DNA of 57,973 nucleotides from Candidatus Sericytochromatia bacterium (GTDB lineage: Bacteria; Cyanobacteriota; Sericytochromatia; S15B-MN24; UBA4093), in NCBI GenBank assembly GCA_036676985.1, contig JAKFBU010000025.1:1-57973 (forward strand). Reading direction: 5' to 3'. Positions 6,977 through 25,967 of this stretch are shown in pieces (position 1 is the first letter of the stretch; each line of letters starts with the position of its first letter). Made by a program: the position numbers and the translations under genes. The notes under the pieces are model-generated. The model did no database searches, had not been told where the DNA came from, and saw only the letters and a program-made list of their open reading frames with translations.

Positions 6977-8221
6977 ATGAATTTCCTACAACCCCTCGCG
7001 GAGTTACGCGCCCTGTTTAGACGTCATCCTGCCTTCCGGCAGGTCTTTCTCGCGGATATCGCGTGTCAGCTCGGTGACGGCGGCCTCCTGGTGGCCTTTC
7101 CGATGCTCATCCTGCAAGAGACGAAGGACGTCTCCTTGACGGGGCTCGCCTTCAGCGGTGAGATCCTGGCCTTCGCGCTCTTGAGCCCCGTGGCCGGCCA
7201 GCTTGCCGACCGCATGGACCAAAAGCGCCTGATGGTGCTCGCCAACGCGGCACGGCTCGCCGTCTTCACGCTCTTGCTCGCGGCCCTCGGCCTCGGGCTC
7301 GGCGTGGGCGCCCTGCTCGTGCTGTCGCTGACCCTGGGGGCCGCCGGCTCGTTCTTCATGCCCGCCCGGGCGGCGCTGGTGCGTCGCCTCTTGGAAGGCA
7401 AGGAGCTCGAGCAGGCGATCGCCCTCGAAGGCACCATGGCCTTCCTCGTCAGGCTGGTGACCCCGGCCCTGATGGGGGCGCTCTTGGCCTTCCAGCCCGC
7501 CACGGTGGGCATCTGGGTGGACATGGCGGCCTACGCCTTGGGCATCCTGTTCCTCTTGCCCGCCTGGGTCACGGCTCCGGGCGGTGAGGTGGCACAGGAA
7601 GCGGAGGCCGGGGAATGGCAGGACGGGTGGCGAGCGATCGCCGCCTCGCCCCGCCTGAGGAGCATGCTCCTCCTGGACGTGCTCCTGTGCCTGGTGGGCA
7701 TGGCGGCCTTCTCGAGCACGGTCGCCTACCTCACGGAGGTGCTCAAGCTGGGGGCCCAGGCCAACGGGTGGCTGCTCGCCACCACGGGGCTCGCGGGGGC
7801 CATCGGCACCCAGCTCGCCGGCCGTCTCTCGAAGGCCTGGCGGGTGTACGCGGCCCTCACGGGGGCCATCGCCCTGACGTACCTCCTGGTGCCGTACGTC
7901 TCGGTGCTCTGGCTGCTCATGATCGCCTGGTCGCTGCGCGGCCTGGCGATCGGGGCCCTGGGGGTGCTCATCAACCAGACCATCGCCGCCGCGGTCCCCG
8001 CGGAGGTGATGGGACGGGTGCAGGCCGCCTGGAGTCTGGGGGCATGCGTCGCGGCCTTCGCGGGCAGCGCCGCCACCCCGTGGCTCCTCAGGCACCTGGG
8101 GGCGGCACGGTCGTTCACCCTCTACGGCGTGCTGCTCGCCGTCCTGGCCGTGGCGCTCGTCGCTCCGAGCGCCGTGCGCCAGGCGTGGAGGGCGATCGCC
8201 GCCCGCCGTGCCTACAGCTGA
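6977..8221 (+). CDS. MFS transporter (H+ antiporter/macrolide-efflux-like)
   Basis: about 12 TM segments, motif A GQLADRMDQKRLM; GAGGAGG RBS. Confidence 0.9.
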   Translation: MNFLQPLAELRALFRRHPAFRQVFLADIACQLGDGGLLVAFPMLILQETKDVSLTGLAFSGEILAFALLSPVAGQLADRMDQKRLMVLANAARLAVFTLLLAALGLGLGVGALLVLSLTLGAAGSFFMPARAALVRRLLEGKELEQAIALEGTMAFLVRLVTPALMGALLAFQPATVGIWVDMAAYALGILFLLPAWVTAPGGEVAQEAEAGEWQDGWRAIAASPRLRSMLLLDVLLCLVGMAAFSSTVAYLTEVLKLGAQANGWLLATTGLAGAIGTQLAGRLSKAWRVYAALTGAIALTYLLVPYVSVLWLLMIAWSLRGLAIGALGVLINQTIAAAVPAEVMGRVQAAWSLGACVAAFAGSAATPWLLRHLGAARSFTLYGVLLAVLAVALVAPSAVRQAWRAIAARRAYS

Positions 8222-22693: not shown

Positions 22694-22704
22694 CAATGGC
22701 GCGA

Positions 22705-23331
22705 TTAGCGGCCGGCGTTGACCTTGCCGGAAAGGGATTCGATGGCGCGGACGGCGGCCTTGGCGCCCTCCTCGATGTTCGCCTCGTCGCCCGCCAGGTA
22801 GACGCGGCCGAAGGCACCGAAGGCGCGCACCTCGAGCACGTTGACGTCCGCCGCCTTCTCGGCCTCGTTGGCCGCCAAGAGCGCGTAGCCCGCCGGATGG
22901 ACCTCCAGCACGAACAGCGTCTCGCCCTTCTTGATCATCTCACCGTGCCGCATGCGGTTGATGAGCATGGTCTGGTGGGCATCGGTGCCGGTGATGGTCG
23001 TCGCCGAGACGATCTTGGGCTTGATGCGGTCGTCTTCCGTCAGGCCCATGCGGTCGAGGATGGCCTCGCCCGCCGCCCGGACCTCGTACTGCTCGTCATG
23101 GTGCGCCTCGAGCACGCCGAAGTCGCGCTCGACGATGAGCATGCCGGGCTTGACCTTGGTGGCCTTGAGCGCCGCGTCGGTGATCAGGTTGATCTCGATG
23201 CCCGGGTTGATCTCGACGAACACGGACGCCTGGCCCTCGACGGGGAGGAAGCCCTGGGACACCGTGCCCATGAAGGCCGCCACCTGGGGCTGAAGGGTAT
23301 CGAGGTAGACGAAGGTACGGAGATCGGCCAT
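22705..23331 (-). CDS. tandem-domain bacterial microcompartment shell protein (BMC-T, CcmP/CsoS1D-like)
   Basis: LRTFVYLDTLQPQ.AAF.G...GFLP, VERDFGVLE.H, AANEAEKAA, GAFGRVYLAG. Confidence 0.88.
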   Translation of the reverse strand: MADLRTFVYLDTLQPQVAAFMGTVSQGFLPVEGQASVFVEINPGIEINLITDAALKATKVKPGMLIVERDFGVLEAHHDEQYEVRAAGEAILDRMGLTEDDRIKPKIVSATTITGTDAHQTMLINRMRHGEMIKKGETLFVLEVHPAGYALLAANEAEKAADVNVLEVRAFGAFGRVYLAGDEANIEEGAKAAVRAIESLSGKVNAGR

Positions 23332-23346
23332 CGGGTCCTCCTAAAT

Positions 23347-23697
23347 TCAGGAAAGCAGCGCGTCGAGTTGCTGGGTATCCATCCCGACCACCAACCGATC
23401 GCCGATGCGGAAGGAGGGACGGCGCACGAGGTAGGGTTCTTCGGCCATCAAACGGATCATCTCATCGTTCGAGAGGGACTTGCCCTCGAGACCCATGGCC
23501 TTGTAACGAGGGCTCTTGGTCGAGAAGAGGTCGGCGGCCGGGCGATCGCCCAGCACCTGCTTCAGCTCCTGGAGCGTCAGAGGCTGCTTGAAAAGGTCCC
23601 GCTCCTGGATGTCCACGCCCTTTTGCGAAAGGTACCCCTTCGCCTTGGTGCAGGTACTTCAGCCCTTCTTGGTAAAGAGCGTGACGGCTTGAGCCAT
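23347..23697 (-). CDS. ArsC/Spx-family thioredoxin-fold selenoprotein (UxxC), 116 aa
   Basis: GGAGG RBS; ATG GCT CAA...AAG GGC TGA AGT ACC TGC gives MAQAVTLFTKKGUSTCTKAK in frame with the ArsC body (EPYLVRRP). Confidence 0.85.
23625..23643 (-). promoter_or_regulatory. bacterial SECIS-like hairpin
   Basis: GCGAAGGG-GUA-CCUUUCGC starting 15 nt after the UGA; G-initiated apical loop. Confidence 0.65.
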
Positions 23698-23777
23698 GAA
23701 ATCCTCCGAAGAGTCCGTAAGAAGCGGAACGTGGGTCTATGATACCGCACGGAGCGAGCGGATGATAGGGGATCGGC

Positions 23778-24845
23778 CTAGCGGGACCCCGAAATCAGCG
23801 CCGCGATCTGACGGGCTGCCTGTCCCTCGCCGAACTCGCCCAGCCGGCGCGCGCTCGTGGGCCGCTCGGAGAGCGCGCGCGCGAGGGCCGCAGGGTCCGC
23901 ACCGACGAGCACGTTCCAGCCGCCCGCGAGCGTCTCGTCCCACTCGGTCTCGTCGCGCAGGGTCCGGCAGGGCACGCCCAGGAAATAGGCCTCCTTCTGG
24001 ACGCCGCCCGAGTCCGTGAGGACGGCGGCCGCGTTGGCCTCCAGCATGAGCATGTCCAGGTAGCCGACGGGCGGGACGATGCGCAGGTTCGGGTGCGCGA
24101 GGACCGAGTCGAGCCGCTGCTCCTCGAGCCGCTTGCGGGTCCGCGGGTGCAGGGGCAGCACCACGGGCTTGTCGAGCGTCGGGAAGGCCCCGAAGATGGC
24201 CGCGAGGCGCGCGGGGTCGTCCGTGTTCTCCGCCCGGTGCACGGTGGCCAGGTAGTATCCGCCCGGCGCGAGGCCGAGCTCCGCGAGCATGCCCACCCGC
24301 TCCTGGGCGCGGGGCCGGAAGTGCAGGGTGGCATCGTACATGACGTCGCCCACCCGGTGGACGCCTGAGGTGATGCCCTCGGCGGCGAGGTGGCGGACCG
24401 CCGTCTCGGTGGGCGCGAAGAGCAGCGTCGCGGCGTGGTCCGTGAGGACCCGGTTCACCTCTTCCGGCATCCGGCGGTTGAAGCTGCGCAGCCCCGCCTC
24501 CACGTGCGCGATGGGGATGTGGAGCTTGGTGGCGGCCAGCGCCCCGGCCAACGTCGAGTTGGTGTCGCCGTAGACGAGCACCCAGTCGGGCTGTTCCGCC
24601 ATGAGGACGCGCTCGATCTCGGTGAGCATGGCGCCCGTCATGGCTCCGTGCAGGCCGCCGCCGATGCCCAGGTGGTATTCGGGCTTGGGGATGCCCAGCT
24701 CCTCGAAGAAGACGTCCGACATGTTGGCGTCGAAGTGCTGGCCGGTGTGGACCAGCACTTCCTGCGCGACCTGGCGTAGCTCGTGGCTGACCGGAGCCGC
24801 CTTGATGAACTGGGGGCGGGCTCCGACGACCGTGACGACCTTCAT
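23778..24845 (-). CDS. wecB: non-hydrolysing UDP-sugar 2-epimerase (WecB/WbpI-like)
   Basis: GARPQFIK, HTGQH, GDTNST, HVEAGLRS, TDSGGVQKEA. Confidence 0.93.
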   Translation of the reverse strand: MKVVTVVGARPQFIKAAPVSHELRQVAQEVLVHTGQHFDANMSDVFFEELGIPKPEYHLGIGGGLHGAMTGAMLTEIERVLMAEQPDWVLVYGDTNSTLAGALAATKLHIPIAHVEAGLRSFNRRMPEEVNRVLTDHAATLLFAPTETAVRHLAAEGITSGVHRVGDVMYDATLHFRPRAQERVGMLAELGLAPGGYYLATVHRAENTDDPARLAAIFGAFPTLDKPVVLPLHPRTRKRLEEQRLDSVLAHPNLRIVPPVGYLDMLMLEANAAAVLTDSGGVQKEAYFLGVPCRTLRDETEWDETLAGGWNVLVGADPAALARALSERPTSARRLGEFGEGQAARQIAALISGSR

Positions 24846-25967
24846 CTAGACGCTCGCCACCCCGGCGACCGCCTTGGCGAGGGCGGAGACGACCTCGCGC
24901 TGCTGCGCCTCGGTGAGCTCGGGGAAGATGGGCAGGGACAGGACCTCGGCGGCGGCTCGATCCGAGACCGGGAAGTCGCCCTTCTTGTGGCCCATGTAGG
25001 CGTGGACCTCCTGCTGGTCCAGGGGAATGGGGTAGTAGACCATCGTCTGGACGCCGAGCTCGGCCAGGGCCTTCTGGACGCGATCGCGCTCCTTCACCCG
25101 GATGGTGTACTGGTGGTAGACGGGCACGGTGCCCTCCAGCTCGTCCGGCGTGACGACGCCCGGGATGCGGGCCTCGGCGATGAGGGCGTTGTAGCGCTTG
25201 GCGACCTGGCGGCGGGCCTCGTTCCACTGGTCCAGGTGCGGCAGCTTGACCCTGAGGACCGCGGCCTGGAGCTCGTCGAGCCGCGAGTTCACGCCGAGCT
25301 CCGTGTGGTGGTACTTGATGGCGCCGCCGTGGGCGCGCAGCATGCGGGCGCGGTCGGCGATCGCCGGGTCGTTGGAGACGAGCGCCCCGCCGTCGCCGTA
25401 GCAGCCGAGATTCTTGGACGGGAAGAAGCTGAAGCAGCCGACGTGGCCGATGGTGCCCGTCTTCTTACCCCGGTAGGTCGAGCCGATGGACTGGGCGCAG
25501 TCCTCGATGACGGACAGCCCGTGCTTTTCAGCGATCTCCGTGATCGCGGCCATGTCCACGGGCTGGCCGTACAGGTGGACGGGCATGATCGCCTTGGTCT
25601 TGGGCGTGATGGCCGCCTCGACGAGCGCGGGGTCCATGTTGTAGGTGACGGGATCGATGTCCACGAACACGGGCGTCGCGCCCACGATGCCGATGGCCTC
25701 GGTGGTCGCCACGAAGGTGAAGGGCACGGTGATGACCTCGTCGCCCGCCCCGATCTTGAGGGCCCGCAGAGCCAGGTGCAGGGCGTCGGTGCCCGAGTTC
25801 ATGCCGACGGCCTGGGCCACGTCGAGGTAGCTCGCGAGCTCCTTCTCGAACGCCTTCACGTTCGGACCGTTGATGTACTGGCCGCTGCGGACCGCCACGA
25901 GGATGGCCTCGTCCATTTGGGCCTGGAGGGACTCGTACTGGGGCTTGAGGTCGAGAATGGGGATCAT
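24846..25967 (-). CDS. DegT/DnrJ family aminotransferase (WbpE-like)
   Basis: NSGTDAL, PVHLYGQ, EDCAQ, FSFFPSKNLG, NSRLDELQAA. Confidence 0.93.
   Translation of the reverse strand: MIPILDLKPQYESLQAQMDEAILVAVRSGQYINGPNVKAFEKELASYLDVAQAVGMNSGTDALHLALRALKIGAGDEVITVPFTFVATTEAIGIVGATPVFVDIDPVTYNMDPALVEAAITPKTKAIMPVHLYGQPVDMAAITEIAEKHGLSVIEDCAQSIGSTYRGKKTGTIGHVGCFSFFPSKNLGCYGDGGALVSNDPAIADRARMLRAHGGAIKYHHTELGVNSRLDELQAAVLRVKLPHLDQWNEARRQVAKRYNALIAEARIPGVVTPDELEGTVPVYHQYTIRVKERDRVQKALAELGVQTMVYYPIPLDQQEVHAYMGHKKGDFPVSDRAAAEVLSLPIFPELTEAQQREVVSALAKAVAGVASV

Follow-up and report, generated by a model that had tools for sequence, protein, structure and literature searches.

The stretch of DNA analysed here, 57,973 nt from a Candidatus Sericytochromatia bacterium (hereafter, the window), contains a gene that standard annotation overlooks. 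It almost certainly encodes a true selenoprotein, of a type already on record, and its host is a relative of cyanobacteria that does not photosynthesize. As far as its sequence and that of its relatives can tell, the gene is very probably intact and encodes a 116-residue protein with the ArsC/Spx thioredoxin fold, in which selenocysteine (Sec), decoded with the help of SelB, takes the place of the first active-site cysteine and which would most likely function as an oxidoreductase. The evidence comprises the alternation of UGA and Cys codons among relatives, a covarying hairpin downstream of the UGA, a complete Sec machinery in the same genome and purifying selection on the frame.

A probable selenoprotein gene truncated by annotation

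The gene lies on the minus strand (23697-23347) and is interrupted by one in-frame TGA; translation with TGA as U yields 116 residues with an ArsC/Spx fold and a UxxC motif. Its features, all in window coordinates, are as follows.

23703..23707, minus strand: GGAGG, Shine-Dalgarno-like, 5 nt ahead of the ATG; read directly from the sequence and kept in G001, the second genome of the genus
23347..23697, minus strand: full putative selenoprotein coding sequence, 116 codons plus stop; ATG at 23697-23695, terminal TGA at 23349-23347
23659..23661, minus strand: internal TGA, codon 13, the U of UxxC; alternates with Cys codons in relatives and is kept in G001
23650..23652, minus strand: TGC, codon 16, the predicted resolving Cys of UxxC; an invariant Cys in the orthologue alignment A2, TGC or TGT in 91 of 91 loci
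23625..23643, minus strand: predicted SECIS hairpin; stem 23643-23636 with 23632-23625 (8 bp), GUA triloop 23635-23633, 15 nt past the UGA
23612..23661, minus strand: UGA plus SECIS unit matched by covariance model R1 (61.7 bits, E ~3e-16 by a rough calibration)
23347..23616, minus strand: 89-aa ORF with a GTG start in the table 11 ORF list; the C-terminal part of the selenoprotein gene, truncated

Twelve sense codons, MAQAVTLFTKKG, stand between the ATG and the internal TGA, which is followed by STC, and the motif at codons 13-16 is U-S-T-C. An earlier reading made from the letters of the window and its ORF list (the sequence-only reading) had proposed a GGAGG ribosome-binding site and an ATG at 23697 upstream in the same frame, and both are found at these positions on the minus strand. 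Its remark that the ORF track offers only 89 residues devoid of an active site is likewise borne out, the table 11 piece starting at the GTG at 23616. Standard gene callers thus return an 89-residue fragment without the active site, and most of the 72 metagenomic relatives with a TGA, found among the best 80 of 504 stretches described below, are probably mishandled in the same way.

Two long ORFs in the vicinity, 22696-23742 on the plus strand (348 aa) and 23737-25227 on the minus strand (496 aa), overlap real genes in the other strand or frame, a pattern typical of G+C-rich DNA, and are without Pfam support where tested. In the region of the latter, frame 23778-24845 alone matches UDP-N-acetylglucosamine 2-epimerase (8e-106).

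The in-frame TGA is maintained under purifying selection

Our collection includes one further genome of the genus, G001, which encodes an orthologue with 90% protein identity to that of the window's genome (G000) and has TGA at the same codon. Of the codons that differ between the two genes over the whole frame, 29 do so synonymously and 11 non-synonymously (pN/pS 0.15), two synonymous changes and one replacement falling within the 12 codons ahead of the TGA; the frame read through the TGA is thus under purifying selection. Bases 23659-23661 were also unchanged in contigs from four sequencing runs belonging to four studies, one of which shares its study with a possible source sample, the rest being from soil, groundwater and a marine-labelled sample. 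Among the runs matching the window, none is listed as RNA; one guessed to be RNA is probably DNA. Close to the TGA, the contigs of the four runs do vary: S14 changes synonymously from AGT to AGC, the codon of F8 becomes TTC or TAC (F or Y), and K10 is replaced by R (AGG). Given that the TGA is kept in G001 and in the four runs while the neighbouring codons vary, the TGA is very unlikely to have arisen by sequencing error or by nonsense mutation of recent date. Reads with TGC or TGT had been named as evidence that would count against the original proposal; the independent assemblies, namely that of G001 and the contigs of the four runs, carry TGA.

Alternation of TGA and Cys codons in relatives

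A match of some kind to the ArsC family was obtained for 38 of the 61 relatives searched. The nine true orthologues from outside the genus (L022-L030, 39-55% identity) all have Cys at alignment column 13, within CSTC, CTSC, CSSC or CTTC motifs; selA is absent from one of these Cys-form genomes, G008, and present in the other eight. A first scan of metagenomes, with a single protein as the query, found no relative. For a second scan, the query was the orthologue alignment A2, and the best 80 of 504 tblastn-confirmed stretches were used. Over the resulting 91 loci, which include these best 80 of 504 stretches, the column-13 codon is TGA in 74, TGC in 15 and TGT in 2, a 74:17 ratio of TGA to Cys that is biased by the choice of the best-scoring stretches and is not an unbiased proportion. 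Neither TAA nor TAG occurs at this column in any of the 91 related loci, and the second Cys of the motif (codon 16) is present in every one of them. Alternation between Cys and TGA among homologues, which the sequence-only reading had put forward as a check, is therefore observed at exactly the codon-13 column.

We built a quick maximum-likelihood tree of 80 distinct proteins from the 91 loci (112 columns, with the Sec/Cys column masked; unrooted, with SH-aLRT support only). The window protein and its orthologue from G001 fell into a seven-member group (95% SH-aLRT) together with five Cys forms, one from the same family as G000 (G008), one from the same class (G027) and three metagenomic (L052-L054), and the next branch outside this group is a Sec form (86% support). 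The tree requires a minimum of four exchanges between Sec and Cys, and branches with good support force two of these; being unrooted, it does not orient them. As the SECIS of G000 is the same element as that of distant Sec forms (see below), the simpler reading, which we infer here, would be that an ancestral Sec was retained in some lineages and repeatedly replaced by Cys. A Sec form nested among Cys forms, yet equipped with the SECIS of distant Sec forms, makes a neat case of repeated Sec/Cys exchange.

The nested position in the tree is also what might be expected of a pseudogene, in which TGA13 would be a nonsense mutation of what was once a Cys codon, leaving as product no more than a 12-residue peptide of no use or else the 89-residue fragment: the nearest protein relatives (L052-L054, G008 and G027) are Cys forms, G000 and G001 are nested among them with 95% SH-aLRT, and both TGC and TGT are one base change away from TGA. 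This explanation appears highly improbable, however, in the light of the persistence of the TGA over 10% protein divergence at a pN/pS of 0.15 and in the strain variants of four studies. It is further opposed by the hairpin, which is the same as that of 61 distant Sec forms (61.7 bits) and is missing from the Cys forms, and by the intact Sec machinery of G000, both described in the following sections.

A covarying SECIS hairpin confined to TGA forms

Bacterial SECIS elements, as known from Escherichia coli fdhF and the bSECISearch model, are SelB-dependent hairpins located shortly past the UGA within the coding sequence and topped by a small apical loop that begins with G. The hairpin of the window gene, GCGAAGGG-GUA-CCUUUCGC at 23643-23625, consists of an 8-bp stem, including one G-U pair, and a 3-nt loop. 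It resembles the fdhF-type SECIS in its location soon after the UGA in the coding sequence and in its small G-first loop, but differs in being very compact, the short stem and loop lying at a constant distance of 15 nt from the UGA. The sequence-only reading had the stem-loop beginning 15 nt past the UGA, which is exact. By itself, the hairpin is not beyond chance (the 71-nt fold has -22 kcal/mol and z -1.2, and 20 of 200 shuffles are as good), so that the case rests on comparative evidence.

The 74 TGA loci, drawn from the set that includes the best 80 of 504 stretches, were reduced to 63 distinct stretches of 66 nt, which align without gaps. Across these 63 TGA forms, the helix formed by columns 19-26 with 30-37 has standard pairs in 92.3% of 504 cells, and double-sided changes are seen at six of the eight pairs (44 cells), for example from A-U to G-C at one pair in 23 sequences. 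Among 500 shuffles of the TGA forms, none matched the observed pairing, covariation score or double-change count, a comparison to be read with the caveats that the helix was taken from one member and that the sequences are related, the shuffles preserving this relatedness. As a control, sliding the partner strand by 1-3 columns gave 34-71% pairing. In the 17 Cys forms, the same columns pair in only 38.2% of cells, which is the shuffle level (173 of 500 shuffles as high). The hairpin lies within the coding sequence and is conserved in part because it encodes the conserved peptide AK(E/G)(F/Y)LSQ; the contrast between the TGA forms and the homologous Cys forms controls for much of the effect of relatedness and of the peptide. 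The proposed fit to bacterial SECIS geometry is thereby strengthened, the stem being conserved, covarying and found only in TGA forms.

For a non-circular test, we built a covariance model, R1, from the 61 metagenomic Sec sequences only, leaving out both G000 and G001. R1 matched the window site (23612-23661) with 61.7 bits and that of G001 with 48.3 bits, against at most 14.2 bits at the homologous site of the Cys-form orthologues and no match at E up to 10 in the three closest Cys relatives (L052-L054). Over the window and the whole 4.68-Mb genome, R1 gave no other match above 16.6 bits. Taken with the pairing pattern, these scores identify the hairpin at 23643-23625 as the predicted SECIS of the family. 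One weak match in the window, at 7018-7050 on the minus strand (14.4 bits, E 0.02 to 0.9 depending on the search space), is most likely due to chance.

In the corresponding element of G001 (L021:1763-1812), two of the eight stem pairs are mismatched and one G-U pair has become A-U, so that the core is reduced to 5 bp and the loop reads UGUAU. Shuffled sequences fold as well as this 71-nt stretch (z +0.74), a genuine weak point for that genome, and of the seven codons that the hairpin spans, six are not the same in G001 and G000. The SECIS of G001 may be either weaker or tolerated by the SelB of that organism. The minimum-energy fold further suggested a helix below the hairpin that would take in the UGA (columns 5-10 with 44-49); with 62.7% of its cells paired across the family, it is not conserved and was dropped.

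Selenocysteine machinery and decoding of the UGA

The window belongs to a genome assembly (G000) that totals 4.68 Mb in 79 contigs and is scored as 100% complete, contamination being 5.09%. This genome encodes a tRNA-Sec (selC; 75.2 bits against a cut-off of 47), which is called SeC(tca) by ARAGORN, as well as selA (627 bits) and selB (381 bits), adjacent to each other on contig C62 and both above curated cut-offs, and selD (387 bits, also above its cut-off). The Sec-decoding trait that the sequence-only reading had implied for this lineage is thus present in full, with selA, selB, selC and selD all found in a 100%-complete genome, and the main line of refutation, a lack of these four genes, does not refute the selenoprotein.

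The selD gene of G000 (C26:280471-281394, locus L018) is itself a selenoprotein gene, with one in-frame TGA in the motif SG-U-ASK. The TGA is followed, at a longer spacing, by a 7-bp hairpin, GGCUCAG-GUC-CUGAGCC, a second SECIS with a G-first triloop in this genome.

Codon 13 would be decoded as follows: when the ribosome meets the UGA, the hairpin 15 nt further on would not yet have been unfolded, SelB with Sec-tRNA(Sec) would bind the hairpin and deliver selenocysteine, and translation would go on to the real stop 103 codons later, a terminal TGA with no such hairpin behind it. Incorporation of selenium at codon 13 through SelB is thus predicted from the conjunction of codon, hairpin and machinery. 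The UGA could conceivably be read through as something other than Sec, by a near-cognate tRNA inserting Trp or Cys or through a lineage-wide reassignment of UGA, and sequence analysis alone does not tell Sec from another residue at position 13. Such a reading seems scarcely credible nonetheless. The gene itself ends in TGA and the neighbouring genes read normally under table 11, and UGA is therefore not reassigned; moreover, non-Sec read-through would leave no role for a SECIS-type hairpin whose covariation is confined to TGA forms, and homologues invariably place Cys opposite position 13, as expected of Sec/Cys pairs.

Family, fold and probable function

The 116-residue protein matches the Pfam family ArsC (PF03960) over residues 8-112 with 49.9 bits (4e-13), above the gathering threshold of 24, and its match to the glutaredoxin Pfam family is weaker. 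The best NCBIfam matches are Spx/MgsR-type models, TIGR01617 with 69.3 bits and PRK01655 with 68.7, all the Spx models scoring below their cut-offs: TIGR01617 requires 75.05, and the subfamily or equivalog models PRK01655, PRK12559 and PRK13344 gave 45-69 bits against cut-offs of 123-159 (123 for PRK01655). TIGR01617 was just reached by two of four Sec relatives scanned (75.5 and 75.9 bits). The ArsC family (seleno)protein model NF041106 scored 38.9 bits against a cut-off of 85; among five relatives, it gave 36-38 bits in three (two Sec forms and one Cys form) and no match at 1e-8 in the other two. Lying under the cut-offs of both NF041106 and the Spx models, the protein is filed under neither, and it appears to belong to a subfamily other than NF041106, one without a selenoprotein-aware NCBIfam model in the library scanned.

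When a profile of the orthologues was searched against solved structures, chains of Spx were the best matches (E 2.7e-23, 85 bits), followed by ArsC-family proteins with no assigned function and by arsenate reductases of the plasmid type, the latter at about 1e-9. In pairwise alignments, U13 and C16 correspond to the CxxC pair of the solved Spx chains (residues 10 and 13, counted in the alignment), the basic stretch after UxxC resembles that of Spx, and Pro53 is aligned with Gly 52 of Spx (by the same count), which we take to be needed for binding of the alpha C-terminal domain (alpha-CTD) of RNA polymerase. The alignment stops near Spx residue 110-114, the 116-residue protein being without the C-terminal tail of Spx. 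The window protein thus shares with Spx of Bacillus and Streptococcus (PDB 1z3e, 3l78 and 7f75 chain G) the fold, the place of the CxxC motif and a core of similar length, and differs from it in having Sec where Spx has Cys and in the absence of the tail. The original placement of the TGA at the catalytic Cys of ArsC/Spx proteins was right as to position, with the refinement that this residue is the leading Cys in the CxxC of Spx-type proteins.

Catalytic thiol oxidoreductases typically carry Sec, where they have it, as the attacking residue. Judging from motif and fold, the product is most likely a thiol/selenol-disulfide oxidoreductase: Sec13 would attack the oxidised substrate, and Cys16 would resolve the intermediate, giving a selenenylsulfide that is then reduced by a cellular reductant. 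Both this activity and the kind of substrate are predicted from the motif and the fold.

The likeness to Spx raises the question of whether the protein could instead act as Spx does, that is, as a redox-switched regulator on the alpha C-terminal domain of RNA polymerase, with a U13-C16 selenenylsulfide serving as the switch rather than as a catalytic intermediate. The closest solved structures are all Spx (E 2.7e-23, compared with about 1e-9 for chains of plasmid-type arsenate reductases), the UxxC motif falls exactly on the CxxC of Spx, the basic stretch is similar and the top NCBIfam model is of the Spx/MgsR type. On the other hand, the scores for TIGR01617, PRK01655, PRK12559 and PRK13344 are all below the cut-offs, the 116-residue protein has no Spx C-terminal tail, Pro53 stands in the place of Gly 52, and Sec at the attacking position points to a catalytic oxidoreductase. 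We regard the regulatory role as unlikely, if the least improbable of the alternatives. A bolder version of it, a Sec-bearing Spx-type regulator amounting to a selenoprotein transcription factor, in a class with an old Sec trait inside a phylum otherwise reported to be without one, would be a long shot.

As a further functional candidate, the protein could be an ArsC-type arsenate reductase that contains Sec and is coupled to glutaredoxin. Arsenate reductases of this type have an arrangement with a single Cys. The Pfam ArsC match and the labels used in the literature ('arsenate reductase 2', 'arsenate reductase-like') speak for such an enzyme, but the equivalog model for glutaredoxin-dependent arsenate reductase, TIGR00014 (arsC), yields only 39.4 bits where its cut-off is 106, the two-Cys-type UxxC motif is the Spx arrangement, and there are no ars genes beside the window gene or among the 126 neighbour ORFs scanned. 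Arsenate reduction by the window protein is accordingly very unlikely.

A Sec-using branch in a non-photosynthetic class

No gene for a photosynthetic reaction centre or for the RuBisCO large subunit was detected in G000. Reaction-centre genes are likewise missing from all 47 genomes of its class, and several are present in 7 of 14 genomes sampled elsewhere in the phylum; from this distribution, we infer that this is a non-photosynthetic class of the cyanobacterial phylum. Within the class, selA was found in 23 of 47 genomes, and a phylum sample of 401 genomes returned the same 23 holders, with none among the 354 genomes sampled outside the class. The distribution is patchy by family, selA being found in 0 of 13 genomes of family f6 and in 7 of 8 genomes of both f4 and f3.

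In the excerpts of the published surveys available to us, the phylum is reported to lack the Sec trait (PMC9312934, PMC1794560), a single Sec protein is given for one 'Candidatus Melainabacteria' proteome (PMC9529120), and a 2016 survey mentions, in its excerpted text, only an orphan selD in Prochlorococcus (PMC5029168). Our literature search found no paper that pairs 'Sericytochromatia' with 'selenocysteine'. The type of protein, by comparison, has been recorded several times: 'ArsC-like' selenoproteins were described in 2006 from two deltaproteobacteria (PMC1794560); 'Arsenate reductase 2' (cd03032, UxxC) is represented by 42 Sec sequences in 21 samples, with 238 Cys homologues, in the ocean-metagenome selenoproteome, which lists a UxxS 'ArsC 1' beside it (Zhang & Gladyshev 2008, PMC2398784, Table 2); and a 2022 review includes an 'Arsenate reductase-like protein, COG1393, UxxC' (PMC9312934).

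The window protein is like 'Arsenate reductase 2' and the 'ArsC-like' selenoproteins in its ArsC/Spx-type thioredoxin fold and its UxxC motif with Sec first, a likeness of motif and fold, and also in having many Cys homologues and a bacterial SECIS past the UGA. It differs from these published proteins, which are marine or deltaproteobacterial, in coming from a soil and groundwater lineage of a phylum for which the Sec trait is reported to be missing. With NF041106 (ArsC_rel_Se_1), an ArsC-family model used by NCBI to name Sec/Cys proteins, it has the family in common, but it scores far under the cut-off and would represent another subfamily. The kind of protein is hence already known, and what is modestly new is the lineage. 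The selenoprotein was rightly described as hidden with regard to annotation, and not with regard to science, the family having been recognized before as one of selenoproteins.

For the class, the result adds a Sec-using branch and a concrete selenoprotein to a non-photosynthetic group in a phylum that also holds the oxygenic phototrophs, leaving knowledge of Sec decoding itself unchanged. We consider it, on the sequence comparisons reported here, a sound correction of annotation of modest lineage-level interest, involving no new kind of system.

Gene neighbourhood

The neighbourhoods of the loci were scanned through 126 of 152 neighbour ORFs, the 26 others, mostly from duplicate loci plus a few short ORFs, having been omitted by hand. 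No gene partner conserved across the family emerged among the 126 ORFs scanned, and no substrate is indicated by them. Partners local to particular clades include Staygreen, downstream in 10 loci, MutS domain V, homoserine dehydrogenase and SOUL (4 loci each) and LysR (3 loci). Scattered neighbours with links to redox or stress are MsrA, AhpC/TSA, ferritin, peroxidase, DJ-1, rhodanese and CMD.

The Staygreen genes (PF12638) are located directly downstream in a single clade of Sec forms (L075, L080, L083, L093, L099, L101, L106, L112, L114 and L121). In plants, the Staygreen family is involved in chlorophyll breakdown. In one of these loci, L080, the upstream gene encodes a heliorhodopsin.

In the window, the selenoprotein gene is followed after 16 nt by a gene (22705-23331, minus strand) for a 208-aa shell protein with tandem BMC domains (Pfam BMC, 6e-7), which presumably resembles the carboxysome shell protein CcmP. 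It was considered as a conserved partner of the selenoprotein gene and rejected, the synteny being shared only by G001. A paralogue with 58% identity is encoded on contig C4 (G000:C4:92625-98562) beside three other BMC-domain matches. All seven phototrophic genomes sampled from the phylum have homologues, with 53-60% identity; of the 46 other genomes of the class, 34 have homologues as well, often in two copies.
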